Virus record (IMG/VR): IMGVR_UViG_2597490154_000001
Origin: a virus
Lineage: Duplodnaviria; Heunggongvirae; Uroviricota; Caudoviricetes
Length of the DNA: 48,488 nt
Strand: one strand, 5' to 3'
In this document: positions 7,269 through 37,927 of the stretch, piece after piece
Position numbering within the stretch: the stretch's first letter is position 1
How the letters are laid out: each line of letters starts with the position of its first letter
Translations under genes and position numbers: made by a program
Notes under the pieces: generated by a model
Databases searched by the model: none
What the model was told of the DNA's origin: nothing
Seen by the model: the letters and a program-made list of their open reading frames with translations, nothing else

Positions 7269-9677
7269 GTGAGTAAATTATTATTTACGATGACTGACGC
7301 CGGGCGTCAGGAGTTGGTTAATGCCAACAAAACAGGAACAAATAAAGTTGAGATTGTTTCTGTTGGTTTAGGTGGTAGATATTATGTCACGTCAACCTCA
7401 CAAACAAATATAACAAACGAAATAAAACGACTTACCACAATAGGTGGCAAAGTTGTTTCCCCTGATACAATTCATGTAACGGCGAAGGATGATAGTAAAG
7501 ATGAGTATGTTGTCCATACAATAGGATTGTATACAAATAAGGGAACGTTGTTTGCTGTATACTCGCAAGAACAAGCAATAATAAATAAAGCATCATCTAC
7601 TATTGCTTTAATATCAAGTGACATAGCAATCAAGACTCTTGATACTAAAAATATTATATTTGGTGATGTTGAGTTTATTAATCCTCCCGCGACCGAAACT
7701 GTTGTTGGGGTTGCAAGATTTGCTAATGAACAAGAAATTGATGCAGGTACAGATGATTCCCTTGCTGTTTCAGCAAAGCGGCTTAAGCAAGCCATTGTGA
7801 AACATGAGCAATCACGTAATCATCCTGATGCAACTTTAACCTCAAAAGGCTTTGTTCAACTTAGCAGCGCCACCAATAGCACGTCTGAAACGCTTGCTGC
7901 GACGCCTAAGGCTGTTAAGGCAGCATATGACCTGGCTAACGCTAAATACACCGCACAGGACGCGACCACTGCGCGGAAAGGGATAGTTCAGCTCAGTAGC
8001 GCCACCAACAGCACGTCTGAAACGCTTGCGGCAACGCCAAAGGCTGTTAAGGCGGCATATGACCTGGCTAATGGCAAATACACCGCACAGGACGCTACCA
8101 CTGCGCGGAAAGGAATAGTTCAGCTCAGTAGCGCCACCAACAGCACGTCTGAAACGCTTGCGGCAACGCCAAAGGCTGTTAAGGCGGCATATGACCTGGC
8201 TAATGGCAAATACACCGCACAGGACGCTACCACTGCGCGGAAAGGGATAGTTCAGCTCAGTAGCGCCACCAACAGCACATCTGAAACGCTGGCTGCGACG
8301 CCAAAAGCTGTTAAGGCGGTAATGGATGAAACGAACAAGAAAGCGCCCTTAAACAGTCCTGCGCTGACCGGAACGCCAACAACGCCAACTGCGCCAAAAG
8401 GGACTAATAATACTCAGATCGCAAGCACGGCTTATGTGATGGCCGCGATTGCCGCACTTGTAGACTCGTCGCCTGACGCACTGAATACGTTGAACGAGTT
8501 AGCGGCGGCGCTGGGAAACGACCCGAATTTTGCGACCACCATGACTAAAGCGCTTGCGGGTAAGCAACCGAAAGATGCCACTCTGACGGCGCTGGCCGGG
8601 CTTGCTACTGCGGCAGACAAGTTTCCGTATTTTACGGGGAATGATGTCGCCAGCCTGGCAACCCTGACAAAAGTCGGGCGGGATATTCTTGCGAAATCGA
8701 CCGTTGCCGCTGTTATCGAATACCTCGGTTTGCAGGAAACGGTAAATCAGGCTTCTGGCGCATTACAGAAAAACCAGAACGGCGCAGATATTCCAGGAAA
8801 AGATACCTTCACAAAAAATATTGGTGCATGTCGCGCTTTTCACGGTGCTATTAGTACAGGGGCAGGGAACTGGACAACGGCACAATTGATTGAATGGCTG
8901 GATTCTCAAGGGGCATTCAATCACCCATACTGGATGTGCAAATGTTCATGGTCATACGGCAATAATAAAATTATTACCGATACTGGCTGTGGAACTATTC
9001 ATCTTGCAGGTTGCGTTATTGAGGTTATGGGTAATAAAGGTGCCATGACCATCCGTGTAACAACACCAAGCACTTCCAGCGGTGGCGGAATCACTAACGC
9101 TCAATTCACTTATATTAATCATGGTGATGCTTACGCTCCTGGCTGGCGACGAGACTACAACACGAAAAACCTGCAACCTGCATTTGCTTTAGGGCAGACA
9201 GGAAACAGGGTTGCAAATGATAAAGCTGTTGGCTGGAACTGGAATAGCGGTGTTTATGATGCAGACCTAAAAGGCGCATCAACATTAATCCTCCACTTTA
9301 ATATGAATGCGGGGAGTTGCCCTGCTGTACAGTTCCGCGTGAATTACAGAAATGGCGGTATCTTTTATCGTTCAGCGCGTGATGGTTATGGCTTTGAAGC
9401 TAACTGGTCAGAGTTTTACACCACAACACGCAAACCCTCTGCGGGAGATGTTGGTGCATATACGCAGGCAGAATGTAACTCAAGGTTTATTACAGGTATT
9501 CGCCTTGGCGGTCTGTCATCTGTTCAGACATGGAATGGTCCCGGCTGGTCTGACAGGTCAGGTTATGTCGTTACGGGTTCAGTTAACGGAAACCGTGATG
9601 AATTAATTGATACAACTCAGGCAAGGCCAATTCAGTATTGCATTAATGGAACGTGGTATAACGCGGGGAGTATTTAA
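7269..9677 (+). CDS. tail fibre protein (constant N-terminal part fused to currently expressed variable C-terminal part Sv)
   Basis: 802-aa ORF, GTG start with SD; tandem ~44-aa repeats ([19 protein letters not shown] motif); C-terminal third lies inside the invertible segment. Confidence 0.85.
7848..8330. repeat. tandem direct repeats, period 132 bp, about 3.7 copies, inside tail fibre gene
   Basis: Units start at 7848, 7980, 8112, 8244; near-identical DNA and encoded 44-aa units. Confidence 0.9.
8713..8738. other. gix/hix-like recombination crossover site (left), inside tail fibre gene
   Basis: TTATCGAATACC-TC-GGTTTGCAGGAA; reverse complement closely matches the right site and the Mu gix half-site TTCCTGTAAACC as I recall it. 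Confidence 0.7.
8723..8794. repeat. left arm of ~72-bp imperfect inverted repeat bounding the invertible segment
   Basis: Reverse complement of 11717-11788 with 2-3 mismatches; encodes peptide [16 protein letters not shown](N/K)QNGADIP in both fibre variants. Confidence 0.9.
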
Positions 9678-10770: not shown

Positions 10771-11790
10771 TTAAACGCTCGCTACATTATACCAGGTGCC
10801 ATTTATATACTTTTGAACGGGTCTGTAATAAACGCCCGCTATATTATCGGCAGAATTGGACCCTGTATCCTGAACATTAATACCAGTCAATACATGACCT
10901 GACGGGCACTGGAAATTCCATGTTTGCCAGTTATTCACGCCATAATATCGCTGTGAACCAAGTCGAACATCTTTCACATAACGGGAATCAAAGTTACCGT
11001 AATCTGAGGGATTAACACGCCCTGTAATATTTATGGTTTTATTACTTTGAATACTGCCGGAGACAAAGCGCATAACATGGACGTTATTAGCATAAACATC
11101 CAGATACCCGTCGCCATTTTGTTTAAATCCCGTGTCATTATCACCCAAAACAATCGAGTTACCGCCAAGAGCACTGGATGTTCCGATGCCCAGTGCACCA
11201 TTCAATTGACCGCCAGATAATGACAACGCCCCAACCTCAGCAGCAGTCGGTTTAATGTGCGAACTGTAAATTACATATACAGTTCCATCTGTCAGGCCTG
11301 TTGGTTTATTCGCTGTATAAGTTGGTGATGTATGAATCGTTACGCTGGCGTTACTGGTATAATCCCACTGAATATTAACACCTGTGGCGTAATTACCTAT
11401 TTCAACATAAACATCATAGGTATTACCGGATGTATTCACCCATGCAAAATTAGTAAATCCAACCGATGTCCGTCGCCATAATGCACCAGTAATACCTTTT
11501 GGATTCCCATTTCCGGCACGCAGAACCAGCTCAGAGATGCCTGCTTGATGCGAGGAGCCAACGTTATACCCTGCGCCACCAATCAGGCTTATGTAAACCA
11601 CGGAACTGGCTTGTGGCATTGTTACAGTTGCCAGTTTGAACCATCCAGCACCACCACTAAAAGACATGGTTGTTGAATTTGTTGTGCCGATATTACGCAG
11701 GAATAGTTTTTTATCGGGAATATCTGCGCCGTTCTGTTTTTTCTGTAATGCGCCAGAAGCCTGATTTACCGTTTCCTGTAAACCGAGGTT
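10771..11790 (-). CDS. silent alternative tail fibre C-terminal cassette (Sv'-like), expressed only after inversion
   Basis: Reverse frame open from crossover site to stop at 10771 with no stops; ORF track shows internal Met at 11667; shares junction peptide with expressed fibre. Confidence 0.75.
11717..11788. repeat. right arm of inverted repeat bounding the invertible segment
   Basis: Reverse complement of 8723-8794. Confidence 0.9.
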
Positions 11791-11798
11791 TTTGCGAA
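11773..11798. other. gix/hix-like recombination crossover site (right)
   Basis: TTCCTGTAAACC-GA-GGTTTTTGCGAA, two 12-bp half sites around a 2-bp core. Confidence 0.7.
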
Positions 11799-11862: not shown

Positions 11863-12417
11863 ATGCAATATGGTTATGCGAGGGTGTCAACTTTTGACCA
11901 GAATTTGGAATTACAACTGGAGGCGCTCAGGAGTTTAGGATGTGACCGGATTTTTGAAGATAAAATATCCGGTGCTAAATCAAAACGACCAGGACTTGAT
12001 AAGCTACTTAAGGTGTTACGGCCGGGCGATACGGTTATTGTCTGGAAGCTGGACCGAATGGGGCGTTCCCTGATTCATCTTGTTGATTTACTTAACCATT
12101 TTTTATCAAACAACATTGAGTTTATTTCGATTACGGAAGGGATAAAAATTAGCACTTCAATTGGCCGCTTTGCCTACACGATGCTGAGTGCAGTCGCAGA
12201 GATGGAGCGGGAAAATATGATTGAAAGAACGCGTGCAGGATTGGCGGTGGCAAGGGCTAACGGCAGGATAGGAGGACGCCGCTCAAAGCTGGCACCAGAG
12301 CAATGGGAACAGATCGGAAGACTTATTGCGAATGGTGTTTCACGTAAGCGGATAGCGATTATCTTCGATGTTACCTTATCCACGCTTTACCGCAGGTTTC
12401 CGGCTGGGAATCATTGA
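11863..12417 (+). CDS. site-specific DNA invertase, serine recombinase of the Cin/Gin/Pin/Hin family
   Basis: 184-aa ORF; N-terminal YARVSTxDQ catalytic motif, resolvase-like core and C-terminal HTH; high similarity to P1 Cin as I recall it; adjacent to inverted repeats. An internal Fis-dependent enhancer is expected by family knowledge but not located. Confidence 0.95.
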   Translation: MQYGYARVSTFDQNLELQLEALRSLGCDRIFEDKISGAKSKRPGLDKLLKVLRPGDTVIVWKLDRMGRSLIHLVDLLNHFLSNNIEFISITEGIKISTSIGRFAYTMLSAVAEMERENMIERTRAGLAVARANGRIGGRRSKLAPEQWEQIGRLIANGVSRKRIAIIFDVTLSTLYRRFPAGNH

Positions 12418-12546: not shown

Positions 12547-12563
12547 AACCACGTAACGTGGTT
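12547..12563. promoter_or_regulatory. palindromic operator-like site AACCACGTAACGTGGTT in the repA control region
   Basis: Perfect inverted repeat, same ACCAC-N5-GTGGT architecture as the sites in the cI/cro intergenic region. Confidence 0.45.
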
Positions 12564-12605
12564 ATGATTGTGGGTGTCTGGTTGGAAACTGACCAGATAT
12601 GGAAA

Positions 12606-12716
12606 CAAAAAGCCCGCAGATAAATCTGCGGGCTTCTTGCGACATCCACGGAAAACCAACAACAACAATCCATGGGCGCCTCGACAACTCCCATTATACG
12701 TTGGTTTTCCGTGGAC
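12606..12716 (-). ncRNA. candidate CopA-like antisense RNA of the IncFII-type replicon
   Basis: Large stem-loop (CCACGGAAAACCAAC ... GTTGGTTTTCCGTGG, 12647-12715) plus a hairpin at 12610-12634 that on the - strand is followed by a T-run; lies in the repA leader. Confidence 0.45.
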
Positions 12717-12730
12717 GCAAGAGCGAACAT

Positions 12731-13579
12731 ATGGATAGACCAATGCCGTCTCTACGTTCCGCTTACGTTTGTAATTTGTCGCCGGAGTTCCAGCCTCCAA
12801 AGCACCATACGCACAAGCTGCCGCTAGTGTTATCTGATGCTTTACAGCGCATTAATGGTCGTGATCTTACGTGTGAGGTTGCGTTCTACGTTAATCAGCC
12901 GTCAGAGCGGAAGCGCCGGATAAACGAGCATCGTCGTCGGGCGATTAATGCTGTGATTGCTGCGATTTTGCACCATGTAAACATCATTTCTAAGCGGGTT
13001 CTGGCCAGTGCTGAGGCGTTGGCTGATTTTTGCGGCCTGTCTACCGTATCCGAAGCTGGGAACAAGTCTATAACACGCTGTACAAGGGCGTTGTCGCAAC
13101 TGAAAGCGTTAGGTTTTATTGATTATGAACGTCGCTGGGATCGGGTGAATAAACAGTATTGGCCAGCGAAAATAGAGATTCGTGATCAACTGCTGGAAAC
13201 CGTTGGTATTACTGAACAAGCATGGAGACGTGCGGTTAGCCAGAAACTTAATTACTTCAATGCGAAGAATAGCGAACGGCTTAAAAAAGCGATAACGGAG
13301 GCTGATTATAAGCGTATTGTTATGCAGGAGCAGATGGAGAATGTATGGCGTCAGAGGAAGACAGCCAGAGAGATAAAGGCAAAACAGAAAGCAGCGGAGA
13401 GAGCTGCGCGTCTTGTTCAGGAAAAGGGAGAGGCCGAACTTCGTCATCAAATCACTAGAGAGGTTAGCCAGGAATTTGCTGATGGCATGTATCCTGGTGC
13501 TGACCTTGCATATTTACGATCCCTCGTTGAGCAGCGTTATAACAGGTTAAGAAAGACCTGGAAATCACTCCAACATTAA
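12731..13579 (+). CDS. repA: plasmid replication initiator RepA1 (IncFII RepA family)
   Basis: Clear similarity to R100/R1 RepA1 as I recall it (SITRxTRAL...LG(F/L)I.Y block, RRRAI motif); start set at internal ATG 12731 because 12599-12730 covers leader RNA structures. Confidence 0.85.
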   Translation: MDRPMPSLRSAYVCNLSPEFQPPKHHTHKLPLVLSDALQRINGRDLTCEVAFYVNQPSERKRRINEHRRRAINAVIAAILHHVNIISKRVLASAEALADFCGLSTVSEAGNKSITRCTRALSQLKALGFIDYERRWDRVNKQYWPAKIEIRDQLLETVGITEQAWRRAVSQKLNYFNAKNSERLKKAITEADYKRIVMQEQMENVWRQRKTAREIKAKQKAAERAARLVQEKGEAELRHQITREVSQEFADGMYPGADLAYLRSLVEQRYNRLRKTWKSLQH

Positions 13580-15730: not shown

Positions 15731-15851
15731 TGCTCATGGAATTATATAATTATAGATTTATATAAAAAGTGCTTTACAGGTGGGACAATATTTCCTAGTG
15801 TTATACCCGAAACCGAGCGATACCCGCCCTGGTTAAACCGGAGATAACCCG
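15731..15851 (+). promoter_or_regulatory. copy 1 of a triplicated promoter/leader cassette (AT-rich motif, TTTACA -35, conserved ~50-nt leader, SD)
   Basis: Near-identical to 25433-25544 and 32064-32174; ends at the ATG of the downstream gene. Confidence 0.6.
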
Positions 15852-16232
15852 ATGAGCATGATTAAAATCCGCAAAAACGCTTTCCTTAAAATTCAAACTA
15901 TCCTGGCTGGTTCTGTTGGCGTGATTTGCCGTTCTTCTTCAAGCCGCATCGATGACGGCTACGATGATGAGTATCGTGTGTCCTCGTGCGATGAGGCTTT
16001 AACCTGGCTGAAGGAGAATCAGGAACGTGCCCAGGTATATCTGGAAACAGAGAACGGCAATCAGATGCTGCGTATTAGCGGTCGTTATGGATTTGAAACT
16101 ACATTCATGGCCTATTTTAATCAGGCTTACTTTGACAAGGAGCTGGCCTGGTACACTGATCGCATGAGCAAAAGCGAGCCAGCCCCGATTACACCGCCGA
16201 ACAATAAATCATTTTTATTCCTCGTTAAGTAA
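15852..16232 (+). CDS. hypothetical protein driven by cassette copy 1
   Basis: 126-aa ORF with SD GGAG; no recognisable family. Confidence 0.5.
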   Translation: MSMIKIRKNAFLKIQTILAGSVGVICRSSSSRIDDGYDDEYRVSSCDEALTWLKENQERAQVYLETENGNQMLRISGRYGFETTFMAYFNQAYFDKELAWYTDRMSKSEPAPITPPNNKSFLFLVK

Positions 16233-17377: not shown

Positions 17378-18520
17378 TTATGGTCTGCTTTTCTGTGCCA
17401 GCTTATCAGCACATGTTTTTATCAGATCCTGTAGTGTCCTGGCTGGCAGGTTTGCATCCAGTACGCTGAGTATGCTGTTGTGATCAGCCTGGTCGATTAC
17501 TTTGCCTGTCGGTGGTAGTAGCTTGAGCTGAGGATTCAGGTTTTCGTCAAAACTGATAAGTGCTCTGGCGTTTCTGAGCAGATCAAGAAGTAAGGCTGAT
17601 ATCACATCATCTTTAGTCATTGTTGGTAGATTTAGTGCCGCTTTAGTTTTCTCCGTCGCCTTGTCAAACTCTTTGATTAGTGTCTTGCGGTAGTTTGGTT
17701 CCGTTAATAGCCGATGATGTTCTGTTGCCGTTCGGATAATCTTTGTTTCCTGATACAGTCGGTTGTATAGCATTCGCTCGTATTCTGCCTTTAACACGCT
17801 GCTGATAGCGTTAAAGGCTTCAATGTAGGCCAGCTTGATATCCTTCACGCCTGGACCGTCGATACTTTCCATGAGCAAGGTAAATCCGTCTTTTGTCATG
17901 CGATAGATTGTTATTTCGCGGTCGCTTCCTTCCAGCGGTCGTTGTTCTTTAAAGAAGTGACGCGCCGCAGCCGTGCGAGGAATGCGTAACGCATCGATGG
18001 CCATAACGATGGAATTGTTTGTGGTGCTGAATGCTTGGGCAACATCGGCTGAGGTTGTGAGTGGCTCGTTGTTGCACACCTTAACGTAATACATTGGTTT
18101 AGCGTTGAGCGTATCGACAACCTCACGAGCATTGTTTGGTGAGACGGTTACGGTCGCGGCCGTTTGCGCGTTCTGGTTGAAGTAGCAGTCTTCCAGCCGT
18201 TCGAATACATCCCATGCCTGATCGGTTTCGAGCATTTTAGCGTGACGTGCAGCCCCGCGTTCGGTCCAGAGGATGAGCTTTCTAACGTTATTCGCGATGG
18301 TTTGAAAATCTCTTAAAGAGATTTTCAAACTTTGGAGATCTGTACCTTTTACAACTATGAAATGTTTTCCTTCTGTAAACCGGGACTTATTACGGTGGTG
18401 ATTTCTGTGAAGACATTCGACGCTACAGCCATATAGTTTGGCAAGCAGCTCCGTGGTGATAACGGGGAGCTGGTTATGCAGGATAGGCTGTAGGGTGTTA
18501 ACGGTCGGAAGCGTTTTCAT
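17378..18520 (-). CDS. phage antirepressor (KilA-N/ORF6N-type N-terminus with Ant-like C-terminal part)
   Basis: 380-aa ORF; N-terminal region resembles antirepressor N-domains; start overlaps the upstream small ORF (ATGA). Confidence 0.6.
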   Translation of the reverse strand: MKTLPTVNTLQPILHNQLPVITTELLAKLYGCSVECLHRNHHRNKSRFTEGKHFIVVKGTDLQSLKISLRDFQTIANNVRKLILWTERGAARHAKMLETDQAWDVFERLEDCYFNQNAQTAATVTVSPNNAREVVDTLNAKPMYYVKVCNNEPLTTSADVAQAFSTTNNSIVMAIDALRIPRTAAARHFFKEQRPLEGSDREITIYRMTKDGFTLLMESIDGPGVKDIKLAYIEAFNAISSVLKAEYERMLYNRLYQETKIIRTATEHHRLLTEPNYRKTLIKEFDKATEKTKAALNLPTMTKDDVISALLLDLLRNARALISFDENLNPQLKLLPPTGKVIDQADHNSILSVLDANLPARTLQDLIKTCADKLAQKSRP

Positions 18521-18708: not shown

Positions 18709-18865
18709 TGTGATGATTCCCTTAAAGGTTAAGGATACTCACCACCGTCAGGTTCCAATCATTGGGTGGTGAGACGTGCAGGGTTGGAACTACCGGACAC
18801 AATGACGAACCGGCGAGTCTTACGACTCCCCCGCACGCCCCACCATAATTTGGGTGTAGCAGTGC

Positions 18866-18960
18866 TTTACGCATAAAAAAACCGCTAACGCGGTATGCGC
18901 CATTGTGTCTACGGGGTTCCAATCCCGACCGTAGATTTTGCTACGGCTAGGAAAGTGTCC
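18866..18960 (-). ncRNA. candidate c4-like antisense RNA with its own terminator
   Basis: Hairpin 18911-18934 displays GGTTCCAATC in the loop; - strand terminator (ACCGCG..CGCGGT then T7) at 18866-18890; complementary elements at 18750-18760 and 18783-18790 in the icd-like leader. Confidence 0.35.
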
Positions 18961-19112
18961 ACCAATGGCGCATTTATGTCAATACGGCGGGATTTTAACA
19001 GAGACAACCACATAGCGTGGGTTTGAAAAACGGAATTTTCTGCTCATTAAGCGCATGATTTGACCAATCAAATTTGTTTGATACTGAATTTTGGGAATAT
19101 CATGTGAATATA

Positions 19113-19868: not shown

Positions 19869-20252
19869 TGCTGATCGGATTCGCGGTCCTTTCAGCATAA
19901 CGTCGTTGTACTAATACAACCACGCAAGCACAAACAGCAACTACATTCTTACCCAACTGAGGTGAATAGTCCACTATTCATATAAAAAAATTTAGCTCAT
20001 TAGCTCATGCAAAATGAAGGTTTTTAACTTATTTACGTGTAATCTTATGTAATAAAAGCGTTTTTTATTCCTTCATTATGAAGGGTATGACGTGTAATAT
20101 GGCTTGGGGCCTTTCCGCCGATTCGCACCCGGGCACTGACTTTCAGGAAAGGATTATCCACTTGCCGTACCACGCAGGCACAAACAGCGTGCTTGCTCTC
20201 GCGTCATTTTCGTCGGTGGGGATGCCGTGAAACGGCCTGTAAGGGCCACACA

Positions 20253-20375
20253 ATGAAAAAATACTACATGTGTATTTTTATCGTTGTTACTGGGGCTTTG
20301 TTTACGCCACATGGAGAGGGTTGGAAGATTACTGATAACGCTCTGAATGTGACGATAAACATTAGCAGCAAGTAG
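20253..20375 (+). CDS. small hydrophobic protein (40 aa), function unknown
   Basis: MKKYYMCIFIVVTGALF...; SD-like AAGGG 8 nt upstream; own terminator immediately downstream. Confidence 0.35.
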   Translation: MKKYYMCIFIVVTGALFTPHGEGWKITDNALNVTINISSK

Positions 20376-20380
20376 CGATT

Positions 20381-20404
20381 AGGCCCCTTCGGGGGCCTTT
20401 TTTA
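20381..20404 (+). terminator. rho-independent terminator
   Basis: AGGCCCCTTCGGGGGCCT followed by TTTTT. Confidence 0.65.
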
Positions 20405-20625: not shown

Positions 20626-20874
20626 TTACTTCTGGTTGTATTGAGCCTTGAGTAACTCAAAAGATTTTGTCAGCACTTCTTTCAATGACATATCCATTGA
20701 GCTGGCGAACGTTTTGTACTCGCGTTTAAATTCAGGGTCGACGTTAAACGCCATTTGTGCCCCACCTGATTTGGTTCTGGCTGGCGTTTCAGTCGGGTCG
20801 AAAACCTGCGGTTGTTCGATCGATGGCGGTACGCCTTTGCTGTTCTTCTTTGGTGGTTTTGATGGTGCGGCCAT
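20626..20874 (-). CDS. ParG-like small partition protein (basic, probable ribbon-helix-helix)
   Basis: 82-aa ORF immediately downstream of the ParA-like ATPase. Confidence 0.5.
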   Translation of the reverse strand: MAAPSKPPKKNSKGVPPSIEQPQVFDPTETPARTKSGGAQMAFNVDPEFKREYKTFASSMDMSLKEVLTKSFELLKAQYNQK

Positions 20875-20888
20875 GTGTATCCTCTCTT

Positions 20889-20921
20889 ATATAAATCTAT
20901 AAAACTATAATTATATATTAC
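20889..20921. repeat. AT-rich motif site (TATAAATCTATAA / ATAATTATATA family) between the two par genes
   Basis: Member of a dispersed motif family with at least 8 sites in the window. Confidence 0.6.
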
Positions 20922-21586
20922 GCGGCAGTAGTCAGAGCCTCAAGCTGGTTGATAATCCCCTGAATAACGTCGTCTGCTTTTTTGCGTGGCGCAACGTATG
21001 AGCACTCAATGAGGCTTAAGCCTTTATCCTGAGCTTTGCTCAGAGCTGGCTTGTGGGGAATGTACTTATCGACAACAAAGTATGGCGTATTAGCCAGGTA
21101 CTCTTGGGCTTCAATATAGTCAGCTTCGTTTTCAGCCGCGCCGGAAAACACCATGCAAATTTTCTTGATTGGTACACCCTTTTTAACGATGCCGTGAGCT
21201 GTGTTAACGGTGGTTTCCAGGTCATCGGTAGAGAATCTGGTTGGCAAAATAACCATATCCAGAAATTCAGAGAGCTTCGGTACTGATTCAGATGCGTAGG
21301 CACCGCCATCAACGATAACCAGGTCGTATACTTCTGATTCGATGATTTTCTGGACTTGTGATGGCGTGCCGCACGGCTGCGCCGCGATTGCAGGTTCGAT
21401 ATTGTTGGCCATTCTGCGTTGTACCCAACGCGTTACCGTTCCGTTAAGCACATCCATATCGATCAGGCATACATTCCAGCCAGCCTTTGCATAAGCAACT
21501 GCTAAAGCACGAGCAATGGTTGATTTGGTTACGCCGCCTTTTCCGTTGAAAATACCTACAGATATAGTCATTTGTCGAGACTCCAT
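20918..21586 (-). CDS. ParA/ParF-type partition ATPase (small Walker-type)
   Basis: 222-aa ORF with deviant Walker A GKGGVTKST near the N-terminus. Confidence 0.85.
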   Translation of the reverse strand: MESRQMTISVGIFNGKGGVTKSTIARALAVAYAKAGWNVCLIDMDVLNGTVTRWVQRRMANNIEPAIAAQPCGTPSQVQKIIESEVYDLVIVDGGAYASESVPKLSEFLDMVILPTRFSTDDLETTVNTAHGIVKKGVPIKKICMVFSGAAENEADYIEAQEYLANTPYFVVDKYIPHKPALSKAQDKGLSLIECSYVAPRKKADDVIQGIINQLEALTTAA

Positions 21587-21593
21587 GTGTTTG

Positions 21594-21699
21594 ATTATAT
21601 AATTCTATAAATCTATATTTATAGAATGAGGTAAGCATAACCAACTTTTTGGCGGATGAAAAGTGTTTTATATAATTATATAAATCTATAATCATATAA
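21594..21699. repeat. two AT-rich motif sites upstream of the partition operon (candidate centromere/operator)
   Basis: TATATAATTCTATAAATCTATA at 21594-21627 and TATATAATTATATAAATCTATAA at 21669-21699. Confidence 0.55.
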
Positions 21700-22130: not shown

Positions 22131-22147
22131 AACCACAAATCGTGGTT
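22131..22147. promoter_or_regulatory. operator-like palindrome AACCACAAATCGTGGTT, also a hairpin
   Basis: Perfect ACCAC-N5-GTGGT palindrome followed by T7. Confidence 0.5.
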
Positions 22148-22188: not shown

Positions 22189-22851
22189 TCATAACCAGTT
22201 GACAACACTAACTACGCGGCCAAGAACTTTATAACGCTTAAATTCCTCGTTATTCAGATGCTTAGTGTTCATTTCAGCATCCCTTTCGGTTGACAGCATA
22301 ACAGCATTGTCACCCGGTATGACTCTACAGTGCCTCAAAACAACCAGGCCATTTCTGTCTTCAAGGGCATAGATCCCCTCATGAATCTCTGTATCGTCTG
22401 TATTAATCAGGACTTGGGAGCCAGGGGATATTGTTGGTGACATTAGCTTTAGCTCATCGTTGCTCTGGAGAACAGACAGAGACGATGGGTTGATGTTCTT
22501 GCTTCGTAGAATCTCCTGTTCTATCGCCAGCACTGGCTTTTCTCCGGCGTGCGATGCTATGTCATTTTTTATAGCTACAAGCCCAGGAATAACAGGTGCG
22601 TTAGTATTCTGGGGTGGGAACGGGTTATCTGTTAAGCACGCGATATAAGGCGCTGATGCTTTCAGGGCGTGCGCGATTTTCTTGATGGCAGGTATAGATG
22701 GTTGTCTTAATCCGGCCTCATAGTTCTGCAAGGTGCTTAAGCCTATTCCAGTGACTTGCTGGAGATCTCCGGCAGTCATGCCGGATTGTTTCCGTAGAGT
22801 CTGAATGCGCAGACCTATTTCTTTCTTGATGTTCTCGTCGTTGCTTTTCAT
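22189..22851 (-). CDS. CI-like prophage repressor (HTH plus S24 LexA-like peptidase domain)
   Basis: 220-aa ORF; N-terminal HTH; C-terminal Ser (LMSPTISPG) and Lys (RYKVLGRVV) motifs typical of autocleaving repressors. Confidence 0.8.
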   Translation of the reverse strand: MKSNDENIKKEIGLRIQTLRKQSGMTAGDLQQVTGIGLSTLQNYEAGLRQPSIPAIKKIAHALKASAPYIACLTDNPFPPQNTNAPVIPGLVAIKNDIASHAGEKPVLAIEQEILRSKNINPSSLSVLQSNDELKLMSPTISPGSQVLINTDDTEIHEGIYALEDRNGLVVLRHCRVIPGDNAVMLSTERDAEMNTKHLNNEEFKRYKVLGRVVSVVNWL

Positions 22852-22887: not shown

Positions 22888-23008
22888 TTACCACATTTAG
22901 TGGTTTTCACACGGTAAGACGAGAGGTAGACCACAAATAGAAGGTTATTTTTTGTTTCCCCATTGAAAAACTCACGATTTGTGGTTTTAATACCACATAT
23001 CGTGGTTT
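22888..23008. promoter_or_regulatory. divergent cI/cro-type promoter-operator region
   Basis: Palindromes ACCACATTTAGTGGTT (22890-22905) and ACCACATATCGTGGTT (22992-23007), plus two degenerate copies. Confidence 0.6.
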
Positions 23009-24997: not shown

Positions 24998-25375
24998 GTG
25001 AGACGCGATCTGGATAGCTTGTTTGAGCTATGGGCGCTGTGGGTGCGCAATGGCTGCAACGCCCGTAGCGGTTTCGCGTCGATGTTAGAAATGATGATGG
25101 TTACGCGTTGCCAGTTTACCGGAGGGGGCGGCGCACCAAATGACTCACTGGAAACCAGTATCGAGGGAGCGGTGACGGCCCTCACGGTAGTTGATGAGAC
25201 TGCGGCGCTGGTTGTCCGAATTGAATACGGGGCGTGGGAGATTCGGGGCCTCGACATAAATGCACCGCATATTGATAAAGCCCACGCCCTTTCTCTTAGT
25301 CTCAGACAGTATCGCCGGAAGCTGGCAAAAGCCAGGGCGTATGTTGTCGACTATTTGAAAAAGCGAAGAGAGTGA
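24998..25375 (+). CDS. candidate Q-like late antitermination protein
   Basis: 125-aa ORF just upstream of a repeated promoter cassette; LFELWALW motif resembles the small Q-like family as I recall it; weak call. Confidence 0.35.
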   Translation: MRRDLDSLFELWALWVRNGCNARSGFASMLEMMMVTRCQFTGGGGAPNDSLETSIEGAVTALTVVDETAALVVRIEYGAWEIRGLDINAPHIDKAHALSLSLRQYRRKLAKARAYVVDYLKKRRE

Positions 25376-25432
25376 AAGTGTCATTTTGAGCTGTTTTGAT
25401 GGTGTGTAGACATCGGGAACATCGAAAATCTA

Positions 25433-25544
25433 TAAATATATAATTATAGATTTATATAAAAAGTGCTTTACAGGTGGGAAAAAATTTCCTAAGGTTATAC
25501 CCGAAACCGAGCGATACCCGCCCTGGTTAAACCGGAGAAATCTG
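25433..25544 (+). promoter_or_regulatory. copy 2 of the triplicated promoter/leader cassette (candidate late promoter)
   Basis: Identical over ~112 bp to 32064-32174; lies directly after the Q-like gene. Confidence 0.6.
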
Positions 25545-26612
25545 ATGAATAAACAAGTAATTATTTCTGACTGGATCAACAACCCTAACAGCCTGTTAAG
25601 CACTGATACTGGCTACCTATTACGCCATGTTAATGGTCGTATGGTCAAAAGCGATGAGCACGAAACCTTTTTCTTTGTTGAAGACGATGGGCGTATCTAT
25701 GAGGATGGTTACTCTTATGAAGCCCAAACTGGTTGTATCCCTGCGGAGCTGGTGGACGTAACAGAAGATCTGCGTAAAGCATGGCTTGAACAGCAGCAGC
25801 GCGGAGATGATTACGTAAACACCTATCAGGAACGCCAGAACGCGCGTCTTGCCCGATATATTGCTCGTGCAGAAAAAGCCAGAAAAGAAGGTGCGGTAGC
25901 GCATAAGCGAGCGCATGACCTGTTGGATGTGATCCCGTTAGGCCAGCCGATTTTAGTTGACCATTATAGCGCGAAAGGCCATCGCCGCCGTTTGTCTAAA
26001 GCTGATGCGTTATTCAGAAAAGCGTTTGTTGAATGCGAAAGTAAAGCATCACACTACGAGAGCAAAGCCGCAGGTGTTGGTCGTAATGGAATTTCGTCTG
26101 ATGATCCTGATGCGCTATTTAAGTTGCTTCGTAAGCTGCAAGGCTGCATGAAGTCACACGTCAAAATGAAGGCCGCAAATAAGGCCATTCGCAAATACAA
26201 AAAAGACCAATTACAGCAGCTTTCTGCATTAATCGATCTCAGGTTTACAGAAAGCGAAGCCAAAGAGTTACTGGCCGGAGATTTCTGTGGGCGCATCGGA
26301 TTCCCTTCATACGCACTGAGCAACAATAACGCCGAGATCAAACGACTACAGAGCCGTATTAAGGAGCTTGAATCGGTCAAGTCTGTAACAGGAGCACAGC
26401 GCGAAGAATACGACGACTTTTCTATGAAGATAGATCCAGAGGATAACCGCATCCTGTTTTATTTCCCTGGCAAACCAGAGGCAAACATTCGTTCGCTGCT
26501 TAAATCACGCGCCTTTAAGTGGAGTCCAACCCGTAATGCATGGGTTCGCAAGATTACTCCAAATGCCCTGGCTGATGCCCGATATCTGAAAGAATCGCTA
26601 TTGAAAGCCTGA
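25545..26612 (+). CDS. hypothetical protein (355 aa, coiled-coil rich)
   Basis: Driven by cassette copy 2; no confident family assignment. Confidence 0.5.
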   Translation: MNKQVIISDWINNPNSLLSTDTGYLLRHVNGRMVKSDEHETFFFVEDDGRIYEDGYSYEAQTGCIPAELVDVTEDLRKAWLEQQQRGDDYVNTYQERQNARLARYIARAEKARKEGAVAHKRAHDLLDVIPLGQPILVDHYSAKGHRRRLSKADALFRKAFVECESKASHYESKAAGVGRNGISSDDPDALFKLLRKLQGCMKSHVKMKAANKAIRKYKKDQLQQLSALIDLRFTESEAKELLAGDFCGRIGFPSYALSNNNAEIKRLQSRIKELESVKSVTGAQREEYDDFSMKIDPEDNRILFYFPGKPEANIRSLLKSRAFKWSPTRNAWVRKITPNALADARYLKESLLKA

Positions 26613-26644: not shown

Positions 26645-26677
26645 ATATAGAATTATATATTTATATAAATGTATAAG
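26645..26677. repeat. AT-rich motif site
   Basis: TATATAGAATTATATATTTATATAAATGTATAA. Confidence 0.5.
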
Positions 26678-26689
26678 GACGCCTCGACA

Positions 26690-26971
26690 ATGAAACGCAA
26701 AATTATTAACCCCCAAGATGTGATTAATTTCCTGACCGATCACCCATGTTCAAAAGTGGACGTAATCGCGGAGCACATTGGTGTGTCGCAGAACTCTATG
26801 CGTTGCAGACTGAGAAGCATGGTTGCCGAAGGACAGATAACAACCAGGAAAATAAATGGTTGCCTGTACTACTCCGCTAAACCGGAATTGCCATTTGGCA
26901 TGAATCCTAACTCCATGTTGTTTAACACCTTATTAGCCAAAGTTAAGCCGTTGAGAGGGGCTGTGGCATGA
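26690..26971 (+). CDS. small putative winged-helix DNA-binding protein
   Basis: SD AAGGA before ATG 26690; ORF track start 26669 lacks an SD. Confidence 0.4.
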   Translation: MKRKIINPQDVINFLTDHPCSKVDVIAEHIGVSQNSMRCRLRSMVAEGQITTRKINGCLYYSAKPELPFGMNPNSMLFNTLLAKVKPLRGAVA

Positions 26972-30922: not shown

Positions 30923-30953
30923 TATATATTTCTATAATTATATAAATATATAG
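30920..30953. repeat. AT-rich motif site upstream of the tRNA
   Basis: AATATATATTTCTATAATTATATAAATATATAG. Confidence 0.5.
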
Positions 30954-31090
30954 TTACAACATTCTATGCGCTTTTCTCATTAGCGCACGCATCAACCATG
31001 TTTGTCTGATATGCCGCCGCGCCCAAAAATCCTGAATTTATTGGCTGGGATTTTCGTGCGCGGCGCCACACCAGACAAACAAATCAAATA

Positions 31091-31166
31091 TGGCCCCTTA
31101 GCTCAGTGGTTAGAGCAGGCGACTCATAATCGCACGGTCATCGGTTCAAGTCCGGTAGGGGCCACC
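31091..31166 (+). tRNA. tRNA with CAU anticodon, most like tRNA-Ile2 (lysidine) rather than initiator tRNA-Met
   Basis: Folded by hand: 7-bp acceptor stem GGCCCCT/AGGGGCC, D-stem GCTC/GAGC, anticodon loop CTCATAA, T-loop GGTTCAAGTCC, encoded CCA; G1-C72 pair excludes initiator. Confidence 0.9.
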
Positions 31167-31475
31167 AATTCACTCTCACACATAAAGATAAGCGCGGTGG
31201 AGTTACTTCTTCGTGCTCATCTTTATGTGTGCCTGGTGCACATTTCGGGAAGCCGTTGGTTAGTGAGTACAGGCAGGGCCTGTTATCCGCAAAGGGGTAA
31301 AAGCTGGAGCGGCACGGAACTGTAGCCGTGTTACCAAAACAGCGTTGTCGGGCGATATCCGGCACACAACAGGCAAGGGCATTAATCAGTCTGGTTAGTG
31401 CCCTTTTCGTTGTGTCTGCTGTAGAGCTGGCCAGCGTTATGACTGCCGGAGATAAGCGCCGGAGGCACAACTAAC

Positions 31476-32063
31476 ATGGAGGCAATTGCATTGTTTAATC
31501 TGATTTATGCAGATCCCCCCTGGGAATACAAAGATAAGTGTAAGGATGGGAATCGTGGAGCTGGTTTTAAGTATCCAACGATGAAAGCTGAGGATATTGC
31601 TCGTATTCCTGTCTGGCAGCTTGCTAATCCTGAATCGTGTTTGTTGGCCATGTGGTGGGTTCCGACTCAGCCAGAAGAAGCGTTGCTGGTGGTGAAAGCA
31701 TGGGGATTCAGGCTTATGACCATGAAGGGCTTCACATGGAACAAATGTGGTAGCCGACAACCAGATAAGCTGGTGATGGGGATGGGGCATATGACTCGTG
31801 CAAACAGTGAAGATTGCTTGTTTGCGGTAAAAGGCAAATTGCCGACCCGCCTTGATGCGGGGATCATTCAGTCGTTTACATCGCCTCGTCTGGAGCATTC
31901 TCGGAAGCCTGATGTGGTTCGTGACAAGCTGGTAAGGCTGTTAGGTGATGTTCCTCGTATTGAGCTGTTTGCTCGCGGTGATTTACCTGATGGTTGGCAT
32001 GGCTGGGGCAACCAGTGCAATGGAGGTATCCAGTTGCATGATGCTCTCTGGCAAGTGGCATAG
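31476..32063 (+). CDS. MT-A70 family N6-adenine DNA methyltransferase (orphan)
   Basis: 195-aa ORF with catalytic DPPW motif (IYADPPWEY) near the N-terminus. Confidence 0.8.
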   Translation: MEAIALFNLIYADPPWEYKDKCKDGNRGAGFKYPTMKAEDIARIPVWQLANPESCLLAMWWVPTQPEEALLVVKAWGFRLMTMKGFTWNKCGSRQPDKLVMGMGHMTRANSEDCLFAVKGKLPTRLDAGIIQSFTSPRLEHSRKPDVVRDKLVRLLGDVPRIELFARGDLPDGWHGWGNQCNGGIQLHDALWQVA

Positions 32064-32174
32064 AATTATATAATTATAGATTTATATAAAAAGTGCTTTA
32101 CAGGTGGGAAAAAATTTCCTAAGGTTATACCCGAAACCGAGCGATACCCGCCCTGGTTAAACCGGAGAAATCTG
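32064..32174 (+). promoter_or_regulatory. copy 3 of the triplicated promoter/leader cassette
   Basis: Identical to copy 2 over ~112 bp. Confidence 0.6.
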
Positions 32175-32444
32175 ATGAAAGTACAAGACCGTGAAGTAGT
32201 AAAAAACCTCCTGCAATACCTGACCTCAAAAAACCTGACGGGCAGCGTTGAGTTCCGTGAAGCGTTAAAACATTTCAACGTCACTACGGTTTATCGTTGG
32301 GAAAACAAACATTCTGAAAGACCGTATGTGGTGGATGTTTTTGCGCCTGATATTGAGTGCGGTTTTGAGCGTCATTCGTTCAAGGAGAAACATTCTGCTG
32401 ATTTTTTTTGTGAGGTTGTATGTGCGGCAGGAGATGATGAGTGA
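32175..32444 (+). CDS. hypothetical small protein driven by cassette copy 3
   Basis: 89-aa ORF with SD GGAG. Confidence 0.45.
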   Translation: MKVQDREVVKNLLQYLTSKNLTGSVEFREALKHFNVTTVYRWENKHSERPYVVDVFAPDIECGFERHSFKEKHSADFFCEVVCAAGDDE

Positions 32445-34046: not shown

Positions 34047-34670
34047 ATGACAAAACATCTTAATGTGGTTTCTTTACCACTTTCTGTGTTGATTGGTTAT
34101 GAAAAGAACGCTCGCACACACTCCGTGGAGCAGGTAGATCAGATTGTTGCCAGCATACAGGAGTACGGATGGACTAATCCGATCCTGATAGACGAGAACA
34201 ATGTTGTAATTGCTGGTCATGGTCGAATTGCTGCGGCCACTCAGTTGGGGATGGATGATGTTCCCTGCATTGTTCTGGAAGGGCTAACGGAGAATCAGAA
34301 GAAGGCATATCGTCTGGCCGACAACCGTATTCCGCTGAATGCTGGTTGGGATGAAGAGTTGTTAAGCGCGGAGCTTGCAGATCTTGCGGCCGATGATTTT
34401 GCTCTGGACTCAATTGGTTTTACTCAGCGCGAACTGGATAACTTATTGAGTGCGGCGGTCTACGATGACACAGAGGGTATGGATATCCCATTTGAGAAGG
34501 ATGAGGCCAAATCAGGCGTAAAAGTTCAGTACCTGTCATTTGGAGGTCATAAAATCCCGGCAACGGATGAGGAAGCGGATCGTTTTGACTGCGCGGTGTC
34601 TCGTTATGTTGATGATAATGGCAGCTATATCGGATTTGTATCCGCATTGCTGGCTGGGGAGGTGTGCTGA
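34047..34670 (+). CDS. ParB-like nuclease (ParB N-terminal) domain protein
   Basis: 207-aa ORF with AGHGR motif; paralogue of 37337-37927 (~60% identity in the N-terminal 100 aa). Confidence 0.7.
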   Translation: MTKHLNVVSLPLSVLIGYEKNARTHSVEQVDQIVASIQEYGWTNPILIDENNVVIAGHGRIAAATQLGMDDVPCIVLEGLTENQKKAYRLADNRIPLNAGWDEELLSAELADLAADDFALDSIGFTQRELDNLLSAAVYDDTEGMDIPFEKDEAKSGVKVQYLSFGGHKIPATDEEADRFDCAVSRYVDDNGSYIGFVSALLAGEVC

Positions 34671-36043
34671 TGCTTCACCTCAATTACGACATAACGCACC
34701 TACGCGGCGCGGAATATAACCCGCGTTTTATCGGTGAGGATGATCTTGCGAGGCTGGCGGAAAGCGTCAGGGAGCTGGGGCTTGTGAAGCCATTGATAGT
34801 GCGCGGCGATTTGCTGGTGGCGGGACACCAAAGGACGAAGGCGCTACGTAAATTGGGAATAACGCGTGCTGCGGTGTATGTGTTGCCCTGTGAAACGACG
34901 GTATACGACGAAGTACGGTTTAACCAACTGCATAACGGAACGGATTTTGATAGCGGAGATGAGCGTTGCAGGGTGTCAGGTCTGGAAGATAAGCATGGTT
35001 TTGTTCAGGTATCGGCAAGCCAGATCTCAGGCAATATGCGCGCGAAAATGGCATATGTTCGAAAGAACATAGCGGAACTGGTTATCAAGTATGGTCCGTG
35101 GGGTGGTTGTGTTGCGACTCAGTCTGGTGAGGTTATTCACTGTGCTCAGTATGCATTAGCAGCGAAGATGACGCGCACACCGCTAACGGTGTTTGTGATC
35201 CCTGATGTTGAGAAGGAAAAATACCAAAGTTATCTGAATAAAACTTATGGTGTATTTGAGTATTCTCATCTGGAGAAAACAACATACATCCAGACGTATG
35301 CGCAGCTTATGCGGTTGCGTAATGGTGGCAGCCTGAAATCAAACCTGTATGAGTCGTTGATCCTCCCGATCATTGCCAAGACGCCAAGAGGAATTGATTT
35401 TGGTTCGGGGCAGGGAGACTACGCGCGAATGCTCAGGGCAAAGGGATATAACCTGCATGATCTCGAGCTTTTCCGCCGTAAGGGCGCTGGAAACACTCTG
35501 GATAGGGCCGCAACAAACCGGATGATTGATACGCTGGTGGACGACTTAAAAACGCGAGGGCGTTACGACTACGTGATTTGCGATAGCGTTTTGAACTCGG
35601 TCGATAGTGTCGAGGCTGAATGGTCCGTTCTGACGGTTCTAAAAGGCCTGTGTAAAGCTGGTGGGTCAATATTCTTTTCTGGTCGTAGCCGTGGAGAGCT
35701 GGAAACAGTCCTGAAGCAAACACAAGCGGCGAGTTCCAAAAGCCGGCTTTATTTTATTGATCATAACGGTTTTACCGCGTTGTACCGGAAGGGGCACTGG
35801 TTTTACCAGAAGTTTCACTCTGATGATGAAGTGAAGCAGTTGTGTCGTGTACATGGTTTCAGGATTAAGCGGTCAATATTCAACTGTAAGAGCTGGTATT
35901 TGCACGTCATTAACGATGATTCCCTTAGTTGGGCGAGTCTGGAGAAAGCTGTTCGTTTTGAGTTTGAGTTGCCGTTGCCTGGTGGTTCAACAATCGGACG
36001 ATCTGATGATGTGCTGGCGGCTTTCCGGCCGTTGATTAAGTAG
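34664..36043 (+). CDS. fusion protein: N-terminal ParB-like domain plus C-terminal class I SAM-dependent methyltransferase-like domain
   Basis: 459-aa ORF; AGHQR box; C-terminal GIDFGSGQGD, acidic residue after beta-2, YDYVICDSVL; no DPPY/NPPY or PCQ/ENV DNA-MTase motifs. Confidence 0.6.
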   Translation: MLMLHLNYDITHLRGAEYNPRFIGEDDLARLAESVRELGLVKPLIVRGDLLVAGHQRTKALRKLGITRAAVYVLPCETTVYDEVRFNQLHNGTDFDSGDERCRVSGLEDKHGFVQVSASQISGNMRAKMAYVRKNIAELVIKYGPWGGCVATQSGEVIHCAQYALAAKMTRTPLTVFVIPDVEKEKYQSYLNKTYGVFEYSHLEKTTYIQTYAQLMRLRNGGSLKSNLYESLILPIIAKTPRGIDFGSGQGDYARMLRAKGYNLHDLELFRRKGAGNTLDRAATNRMIDTLVDDLKTRGRYDYVICDSVLNSVDSVEAEWSVLTVLKGLCKAGGSIFFSGRSRGELETVLKQTQAASSKSRLYFIDHNGFTALYRKGHWFYQKFHSDDEVKQLCRVHGFRIKRSIFNCKSWYLHVINDDSLSWASLEKAVRFEFELPLPGGSTIGRSDDVLAAFRPLIK

Positions 36044-37336: not shown

Positions 37337-37927
37337 ATGGCTCTAAAAATCGAATATTTACCAGTCGGTAAGCTGCTCAGATATGCCAAAAATTCACGGA
37401 CTCATTCAGATGAGCAAGTTGAACAGTTGGTGAACAGTATCCGTGAGTTCGGTTTCACTAATCCTGTGCTGATCGATGAAAAGAATGAACTGATTGCGGG
37501 GCATGGGCGGCTTGCAGCAGCCGAAATTCTGGAAATGGATAAAGTTCCGGCGATTCGGTTGAGTAACCTTTCTGAAAAACAGAAGAAGGCGTACAGGATT
37601 GCAGATAACAAGCTGGCCTTAAATGCTGGCTGGGATATGCAGCTTCTGGCCGAAGAAGTCAAAGAGTTAATGGATGATGATTTTGATATTGATCTGCTTG
37701 GGTTTAATGATGCAGAGCTTGACGAAATGTTAAGCGATGAACAGCCGCAGGAAGAAGACGATAATTCTTCCCCTGTTGTTCAAATTAAGTACCTGGCTAT
37801 TGATAAAGAACGTATTCCCGCGACGGATATGGAAATTGCATTGTTGCTGGATGTTTATCGTCAGTACCACGATGCGCATGAAACGCATGAGGGATTTGTT
37901 CAGTATCTTGCTAATGGTTGCAAGTAA
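37337..37927 (+). CDS. ParB-like nuclease domain protein, first gene of the packaging module
   Basis: 196-aa ORF with AGHGR motif; overlaps the small terminase start. Confidence 0.7.
   Translation: MALKIEYLPVGKLLRYAKNSRTHSDEQVEQLVNSIREFGFTNPVLIDEKNELIAGHGRLAAAEILEMDKVPAIRLSNLSEKQKKAYRIADNKLALNAGWDMQLLAEEVKELMDDDFDIDLLGFNDAELDEMLSDEQPQEEDDNSSPVVQIKYLAIDKERIPATDMEIALLLDVYRQYHDAHETHEGFVQYLANGCK

Follow-up and report, generated by a model that had tools for sequence, protein, structure and literature searches.

Eight dispersed arrays of 8-bp repeats in an Escherichia coli phage-plasmid and a ribbon-helix-helix partition protein as their candidate reader

The window analysed here, the whole stretch of 48,488 nucleotides of IMG/VR record IMGVR_UViG_2597490154_000001, is a complete circular Escherichia coli phage-plasmid, and the 4 kb tested agree at 100% with several E. 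coli plasmids that are likewise circular and exactly 48,488 bp long, among them pEcFELIX377.1 (strain Seattle 1946). It carries head and tail structural genes of the myovirus type, an IncFII-type RepA, a CI-like repressor, a HigBA-like toxin-antitoxin pair, an Ant/Rha-type antirepressor and a partition (par) module, in which a gene for a small ParA is followed by a gene for an 82-aa protein with a predicted ribbon-helix-helix (RHH) fold. Eight arrays of tandem 8-bp units lie at this module and at dispersed positions (Table 1). Sequence comparison and structure prediction suggest that these arrays are probably operator/centromere sites to which the 82-aa RHH protein, ParA's partner encoded by the same plasmid, would bind as a dimer, and that they form a small regulon.

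A preliminary description of this DNA had noted related AT-rich elements of about 30 bp at eight or more promoter-proximal sites. Every listed site is present in its place, and their number is exactly eight. The common structure, however, is not a 30-bp element but an 8-bp periodic array, in which each unit consists of an invariant TATA and four further bases, mainly A or T. In the direction of the downstream gene the units read TATA[T/G]A[A/T]T as consensus; the one nearest the gene is usually TATATAA(A/G/T). The 12-mer TATAAATCTATA has 42 matches with at most two mismatches, compared with 5.4 expected and no more than 12 in any of 100 shuffles, and these matches concentrate at eight loci. 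A strict test, which demanded three or more TATA boxes spaced at exactly 8 bp and used first-order Markov random sequences as control, likewise retrieves eight loci only, against a mean of 0.01 in random sequence. A position weight matrix (PWM) of three tandem units scores 29-35 bits at the eight loci and nowhere else reaches 22 bits; its maximum across 20 random windows is 13.8 bits. The k-mer and PWM scans replaced a period-8 autocorrelation detector, whose excessive strictness had caused known arrays to be missed.

All eight arrays are intergenic and spread over 15.7-32.1 kb. Their A+T content is about 95%, with many TpA steps, and a simple promoter scan found no gene-strand sigma70 promoter inside them. 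Because the units are nearly palindromic, the strand polarity of the arrays is weak everywhere (about 4 bits). The earlier statement that each element points toward its downstream gene holds for seven of the eight, the exception being the array at the lysis/tRNA junction, which scores better on the minus strand (33.6 versus 29.0 bits). An exact 21-nt array core in an unrelated AT-rich viral contig (L032 5509-5529, L045 888-908; L numbers denote our comparison sequences) was judged a chance match. This copy sits within coding DNA, on a contig that has neither a ParA/RHH homologue nor another array.

Three of the arrays belong to the par module. On the minus strand the order is terminator hairpin, array A, 4 nt, -35, 17-nt spacer, -10, about 8 nt, array B, GGAG and CTCGACAAATG, the start of parA, so that the predicted promoter is bracketed by array A at about -37 to -68 and by array B at about +2 to +33. 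The third array, of four units, occupies the 43-bp gap separating parA from the 82-aa gene. Three further arrays head promoter cassettes, which are 127-nt copies of 83-96% identity built from an array, 6 nt, TTTACA, a 17-nt spacer, TAAGGT/TAGTGT and a conserved leader of about 45 nt ending in a ribosome-binding site (RBS). The cassette spacer contains the inverted repeat GGGAAAAAATTTCC, which resembles a binding site for a second regulator; a candidate reader of this repeat is p125, a 125-aa protein encoded just before cassette 2 and present in all Enterobacterial lineages at 50-93% identity, which presumably resembles lambdoid Q-type antiterminators.

The two remaining arrays precede a winged helix-turn-helix (wHTH) gene and the tRNA-Met. 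The start context of the wHTH gene, CCTCGACAATG, mimics that of parA: (T/C)CTCGACAA(A)TG is found at parA (21569-21579) and at the gene after the array (26682-26692). The same context is kept at parA and at an unrelated gene after the equivalent array in every lineage examined (L003 22097-22107 and 27720-27730; L018/L020/L021/L023), which suggests a common post-transcriptional or operator element. Downstream of the array at the lysis/tRNA junction, and immediately upstream of the tRNA, lies an inverted repeat with 34-nt arms (85% complementary) and a 15-nt loop.

Table 1. Positions of the arrays, the par module and other features of the window
Feature	Position	Strand	Strict-test locus	Remarks
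Array A	21667..21698	-	21671-98	Four units; directly upstream of par -35, just past terminator hairpin of upstream gene
Predicted sigma70-type par promoter	21634..21662	-		-35 TTTTCA (21662-21657), 17-bp spacer, -10 TATGCT (21639-21634); read from sequence
Array B	21594..21625	-	21598-617	3-4 units; immediately downstream of predicted par -10, followed by RBS and parA start
ParA, 217 aa	20918..21571	-		Small Walker-type; type Ib, ParF-like; real start ATG 21571 after GGAG
parA-RHH inter-gene array	20890..20917	-	20890-917	Four units TATATAAT TATAGTTT TATAGATT TATATAAG, then RBS
82-aa protein	20626..20874	-		ParG-like centromere-binding/regulator candidate; predicted disordered N-terminal tail (1-45) and C-terminal RHH
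Cassette 1 array	15743..15766	+	15743-62	3 units; about -42 to -66; -35 15773-78, -10 15796-801
Cassette 2 array	25431..25460	+	25437-56	3 units and one offset unit; -35 25467-72, -10 25490-95; before DUF3560 gene
Cassette 3 array	32067..32090	+	32067-86	3 units; -35 32097-102, -10 32120-25; heads long rightward operon
Cassette copies 1-3	15737-15863, 25431-25557, 32061-32187			
Array before wHTH gene	26646..26675	+	26646-75 (two overlapping registers)	4 units; between hairpin after DUF3560 gene and RBS/start of wHTH gene
wHTH gene	26690-26971			
Array at lysis/tRNA junction	30923..30952	-	30925-52	4 or more units; between end of lysis genes and tRNA-Met; inverted relative to tRNA
Inverted repeat before tRNA	30999-31081			
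tRNA-Met	31092-31167			
p125	24998-25375			phrog_5285, no Pfam match
Palindrome sites	12547-12563, 19006-19022, 22131-22147, 22889-22905, 22970-22986, 22991-23007			
IncFII-type RepA	12599-13579			
CI-like repressor	22189-22851	-		
Tandem repeats in tail-fibre gene	7845-8319			Three of 132 bp
83-nt inverted repeat	8719-8801 / 11710-11792			93%
Hin-type invertase	11863-12417			
Ant-like gene	17378-18520			
C4 antisense RNA	18762-18850	-		77.8 bits
isrK	18875-18947	-		67.7 bits
ryfA	20105-20403	+		134.7 bits
ParB/Srx N-terminal-domain proteins	34047-34670, 34664-36043, 37337-37927			

The ParA gene (654 nt in the RefSeq annotation) encodes a protein that matches Pfam CbiA (1.7e-12) as well as ParA and MipZ, belongs to phrog_164 and has no helix-turn-helix (HTH) or N-terminal DNA-binding domain. 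For the 82-aa protein, the AlphaFold2 (AF2) monomer model has helices at residues 46-58 and 61/63-80, whereas residues 1-45 are of low confidence and without secondary structure. The best 50 Foldseek matches of the model in the PDB are mostly named RHH proteins, with a TM-score to target of about 0.8, and ParG (1p94) stands at rank 8. The protein is assigned to phrog_6024 and matches no Pfam family at E <= 0.01, ParG (PF09274) included. An exhaustive HMMER search recovered about 45 homologues of 62-92 aa (family A1), which match RHH_10 (16), Antitox_RHH (12), 56B_RHH (3) and, once, ParG (E = 0.018). Their alignment displays a basic N-terminal motif KG-PP, a variable linker and the C-terminal block LNFxVxxEFxRExKxFAxxxDMSMxELLxxxFE. 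Pfam scans of 29 other window proteins detected no further RHH protein; several small proteins are uncharacterised.

The ParA and 82-aa genes have the type Ib (ParF/ParG-like) layout, with a small ParA, a downstream RHH protein with a predicted flexible tail and, at the level of sequence, arrays upstream of the operon. This is a likeness of architecture, and the names parF and parG given to the genes before are apt in this respect only: by sequence the 82-aa protein does not belong to Pfam ParG, and ParA matches ParF (4dzz) weakly, with E = 3e-4 over residues 6-118.

A motif search over related phage-plasmid genomes, which had been proposed as a check, found arrays at par and at dispersed sites again, with units specific to each lineage. 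The layout terminator, array A, promoter, array B, RBS, parA, RHH gene is kept in Salmonella, Serratia and six IMG/VR lineages, in which ParA is 39-55% identical. The array B position is occupied in all lineages, and -35/-10 hexamers with the spacing of the par promoter also occur in L004 (Salmonella), L016, L017 and Serratia (TTTACA-17-TAATCT). The inter-gene array is retained in L004/L016/L017 and has an analogue at 10628-10657 in L024, a lineage with GC-rich flanks, while the array at the lysis/tRNA junction has its counterpart in L004 at 33621-59.

The Serratia plasmid pJSRIV006_2 (L003) combines a siphovirus-type structural module with the regulatory backbone of the window, and its RHH protein is 38-40% identical. 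Its par region reads terminator, array, promoter, array, RBS and CCTCGACAAATG-parA, and three array-preceded cassettes and one array-RBS-CCTCGACAATG site follow the same plan; the latter arrangement also occurs in L018/L020/L021/L023. The units, however, are TTTAAATA/TTTA-AATA: no TATA-period array was found in the Serratia plasmid and no TAAA-period array in the window. More generally, relatives whose RHH proteins are 26-46% identical keep the architecture and differ in the repeat unit. The arrays are GATATAAATATATCTTTATATC in L018/19/22/23 (RHH strand QLLLRLD), TATAAATATATATTTATATAAAAATATAAAA in L021 (QLLLQLD), four clean direct repeats of CTTTAAAT in L020 (LMNFNVD) and GCTATAAA/CCATAAAG in L024 (KLVNFRWPP). 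Within each 18-48-kb sequence, whatever the lineage, the unit next to par is found again at 5-8 dispersed sites, and it changes in concert at par-proximal and dispersed sites, as in TTTAAATA, CTTTAAAT and GCTATAAA. Window k-mers form no cluster in L003 or L020, and L020 k-mers form none in the window, L018, L021, L023 or L024.

Remote homologues of the RHH protein adjoin a ParA of 212-221 aa on viral contigs of 58-60% GC and 8.5-116 kb. Just upstream of parA these contigs likewise have arrays of 8-bp period, either ATTTAGCG ATTTAACG ACATAGGG ATTTCGCG or GAATTCGC ATCGTAGC GAATTAGC. Units on GC-rich elements contain G/C (GCTATAAA, ATTTAGCG, GAATTNGC) but the 8-bp period is retained. Dispersed unit copies are present at least in the ATTTAGCG lineages L049, L050 and L052, and in L050 four strict two-unit matches, against 0.02 expected, are accompanied by looser clusters. 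In the approximately 20 kb examined by tblastx, these backbones share with the window only ParA and a generic ParB/Srx-domain protein, the RHH gene beside ParA being too diverged for detection by this means. The same dispersed pattern on unrelated backbones indicates that the dispersed 8-bp arrays travel with the ParA/RHH pair and not with a particular phage backbone. Natural swaps of the par module, or par-less relatives with cassettes, were not found in PLSDB or INPHARED. A 32-kb plasmid match is merely a deleted derivative, and Erwinia phage LS-2018a, with a related ParA/RHH pair on an iteron-type backbone and no obvious 8-bp array, is uninformative. The word-indexed protein search recovered only relatives of at least 80% identity, and the ParA scan of genome contigs returned two irrelevant loci only.

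The comparison bears on the question whether the arrays are functional at all. Three of them reside in the cassette copies, and array B and the array before the wHTH gene share the downstream RBS-CTCGACAA(A)TG context, a pattern that non-functional relics of duplication would also leave. However, homologous-position arrays are retained in relatives whose flanks are about 71% identical or unalignable, and the units have been replaced in concert in other lineages, which implies selection by a shared reader. We consider it extremely unlikely that the arrays are relics.

At four loci the array sits directly upstream of the predicted -35 of a sigma70-like promoter, exactly where an UP element would be expected (-40 to -66). 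H-NS favours A+T-rich DNA with TpA steps. This position, together with the base composition, would suit a generic AT-rich promoter architecture that needs no dedicated plasmid protein, the arrays being UP elements for the RNA polymerase alpha subunit or nucleation sites for H-NS, IHF or Fis. The other four arrays are located downstream of a promoter or between genes beside an RBS, and a strict 8-bp period with concerted, lineage-specific units is unexpected for sites of host factors in related Enterobacterial hosts. The G/C conserved inside the units of GC-rich elements points in the same direction, as does the persistence of the arrays while the promoter spacer between them diverges. Furthermore, the Serratia plasmid, which repeats the cassette design with TAGGA-N7-TCCTA in the spacer, has a fourth cassette-type core (L003 16266-16298) that lacks an array, and the array is for this reason a separable module and not simply part of the cassette promoter. 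An explanation by generic promoter architecture is improbable on these grounds.

It could also be argued that the arrays are promoters themselves, recognised by a phage-specific transcription factor, as with the T4 late promoter TATAAATA, or by a phage RNA polymerase. TATAAATA and TATAAAT strings do occur within the arrays, and two arrays abut an RBS without a separate sigma70 promoter. Yet neither the RefSeq annotation nor Pfam scans revealed a gene for a sigma-like factor or an RNA polymerase; four arrays precede good sigma70 -35/-10 pairs instead of replacing them, and one array faces away from its downstream gene. Units of other lineages such as CTTTAAAT and ATTTAGCG do not resemble such promoters although the architecture is the same. 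We regard this possibility as very unlikely.

Since par-proximal and dispersed arrays change their unit together between lineages, one factor appears to recognise all eight sites, and a single element-encoded, lineage-specific reader is well supported by the comparison. The best candidate for this reader is the 82-aa protein because of its predicted RHH fold and disordered tail, its position directly after the small ParA, and the 8-bp arrays that its remote homologues likewise have upstream of parA. The earlier proposal of a single regulator, with the ParG-like RHH protein as a candidate, is partly supported in this sense; the sites may act as operators, as centromeres or as both. The CI-like and Cro-like proteins, which had also been named as possible binders, were rejected: a distinct palindrome family, (A/T)ACCAC-N5-GTGGTT, occupies the cI-cro region, which makes them poor candidates for the AT-rich arrays. 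The palindrome has 9 matches with at most two mismatches (1.5 expected), with three sites in the cI-cro intergenic region and one each upstream of repA, near C4/isrK/ant and downstream of cI. These palindromes are likely the CI/Cro operators, in which case the immunity repressor would probably also control replication and the antirepressor.

A different element-encoded regulator, such as the wHTH protein, p125 or an uncharacterised small protein, might instead use the arrays as operators and control par and the cassettes, with the RHH protein binding elsewhere or at a subset of the arrays. Many small proteins of the window have no assigned function. In Salmonella and two IMG/VR relatives with TATA arrays (L004/L017), ParA and the RHH protein are 93-96% identical whereas CI, p124 (124 aa), the Cro-like Cro164 and p171 reach only 52-75%, a contrast that speaks for the ParA/RHH pair. 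The proteins p125, Ref and DUF1064, however, match the pair in L004 (92-93%) and fall only somewhat behind it in L017 (79-89%), and the divergence argument consequently leaves these three as candidates. The L023 site is a perfect 22-bp palindrome, GATATAAATATATATTTATATC, that a dimeric HTH protein could read as well. On the other hand, type Ib par operons are autoregulated by their own RHH protein at repeats upstream of parA, and here the par-proximal and the dispersed arrays are alike; a tandem 8-bp period with mixed direct and inverted units suits RHH proteins better than HTH dimers. The GC-rich backbones with dispersed arrays yielded no tblastx match to the wHTH protein or p125 in the 20 kb examined, and at the equivalent Serratia position another gene replaces the wHTH gene. 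Such a regulator therefore seems rather unlikely to us as the reader.

Three known partition systems and the classical RHH repressors provide parallels for the RHH protein as reader. TP228 encodes, as the window does, a small ParA (ParF) and then a protein of about 80 aa (ParG) whose N-terminal tail is flexible and whose C-terminal domain is an RHH. One ParG dimer binds per tetramer box, the boxes are direct and inverted and separated by 4-bp AT-rich spacers, and they form two clusters upstream of parFG, where the operator doubles as centromere. The 8-bp period (tetramer box plus 4 bp), the mixed orientation and the two clusters upstream of the operon, one of which overlaps the promoter in TP228, are paralleled in the window. 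By contrast, the 12+8 boxes of TP228 are all gathered in one place, none being dispersed, and they read ACTC between AT-rich spacers, not TATA as the invariant box of the window does. The window ParA is, moreover, only remotely similar to ParF, and its partner falls outside Pfam ParG.

In the Streptococcus pyogenes plasmid pSM19035 the RHH-type ParB, omega, which doubles as a global regulator, binds as one dimer per repeat to six parS arrays that overlap the copS, delta and omega promoters and serve as operator and centromere. Both systems pair an RHH protein with a small ParA and have several separate arrays of short contiguous direct and inverted repeats at promoters of different operons. 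The window differs in its 8-bp unit (7-bp WATCACW in pSM19035), in having 3-4 instead of 7-10 units, in its Gram-negative host and phage-plasmid replicon, in the phage promoter cassettes among the targets and in the absence of an array at the replication gene; no sequence relationship is detectable.

The resemblance to the linear phage-plasmid N15 that had been pointed out earlier stands as far as both are phage-plasmids with scattered sites, which are putative partition sites over 15.7-32.1 kb in the window and the SopB sites IR1-4 in N15. Ravin, Rech and Lane are said to have reported in 2008 that the N15 partition system affects late gene expression. However, N15 possesses a type Ia SopA/SopB system, in which SopB is a ParB of the HTH type and its four sites are single inverted-repeat palindromes of about 16 bp, whereas in the window the proteins are a type Ib ParA/RHH pair and the sites are 8-bp tandem arrays, with the par promoter itself lying between two of them. 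The parallel is functional, not homologous. The predicted RHH fold itself is shared with MetJ, Arc and CopG according to Foldseek; the metbox of MetJ is 8 bp long, and RHH dimers bind tandem 8-bp units cooperatively. Those repressors, of chromosomal or phage origin, lack a ParA partner and the disordered, ParA-activating tail proposed for the 82-aa protein.

If the 82-aa RHH protein is the reader, one dimer would occupy each 8-bp unit and dimers would cooperatively coat 24-32 bp, in the manner of ParG on TP228 parH/OF and of omega on pSM19035 parS. Autorepression of par would come about through the inter-gene array together with arrays A and B. The par arrays might also nucleate a partition complex, to which ParA would be recruited and in which it would be stimulated via the conserved disordered N-terminal tail. 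The five other arrays would bring the RHH protein next to phage promoters: three at the UP-element position of a cassette, one in the wHTH gene's leader and one where the lysis genes meet the tRNA. There the partition protein may act as a small global regulator, or the five sites may be extra centromeres, or both; regulation of the cassettes could consist either in occlusion of the UP-element position or in recruitment of polymerase. Binding and its cooperativity, repression as against activation, and centromere activity are what we infer from the parallels set out above.

Several observations speak against this reading. The TATA arrays of the window cross-match those of L018/L021/L023 though the RHH strands differ (QMAFNVD versus QLLLRLD), and a simple residue-to-base code is not evident among the RHH strands and arrays compared, where covariation is moreover confounded by phylogeny (about seven Enterobacterial lineages). 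The arrays hold only 3-4 units, while efficient centromere activity in TP228 requires at least eight boxes and omega activates its ParA only on four or more contiguous repeats. Finally, no array lies near repA, unlike the control of copS by omega. Even so, our best reading of the sequences remains that this phage-plasmid has a dispersed repeat regulon associated with promoters and probably governed by its type Ib RHH partition protein, a pattern that recurs in several distant lineages.

Further features of the window concern the phage-plasmid as such. Yersinia pestis phages vB_YpM_39/41/44 are close relatives (97%); partition genes go unmentioned in the paper on phage vB_YpM_HQ103. The tail-fibre gene contains three tandem 132-bp repeats, and beside a Hin-type invertase an 83-nt inverted repeat encloses alternative genes for tail fibre and assembly, which indicates an invertible host-range segment. 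C4 antisense RNA, isrK and ryfA match Rfam above the gathering score; the former two lie directly upstream of the Ant-like gene in an arrangement that resembles the P1/P7 immI antirepressor control. Proteins with a ParB/Srx N-terminal domain are encoded three times, as two stand-alone paralogues and as a third copy fused to a longer C-terminal region.

The par module is present in 70 of 5,426 complete E. coli genomes, nearly always plasmid-borne, and on 61 PLSDB plasmids; the phage-plasmid family is common, which gives the finding relevance beyond one element. To our knowledge, little is known outside P1 and N15 of how phage-plasmids coordinate plasmid maintenance with lysis and lysogeny. A type Ib RHH protein with a dispersed regulon, if confirmed, would be a simple and testable link between the plasmid and the phage life styles. 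Far more tentatively, and with considerable doubt, the RHH protein might be the master coupling device of a widespread and diverse superfamily of phage-plasmids, from 45-kb enterobacterial to approximately 110-kb GC-rich elements, in which it would coat fast co-evolving 8-bp "bar-code" arrays at par and at lytic/late cassettes and so tie phage expression to the status of the partition complex, the units defining partition/immunity incompatibility groups. Should the RHH protein read the arrays, the orthogonal pairs of repeat and protein would offer a natural set for studies of RHH specificity and would be the probable basis of incompatibility among related elements.

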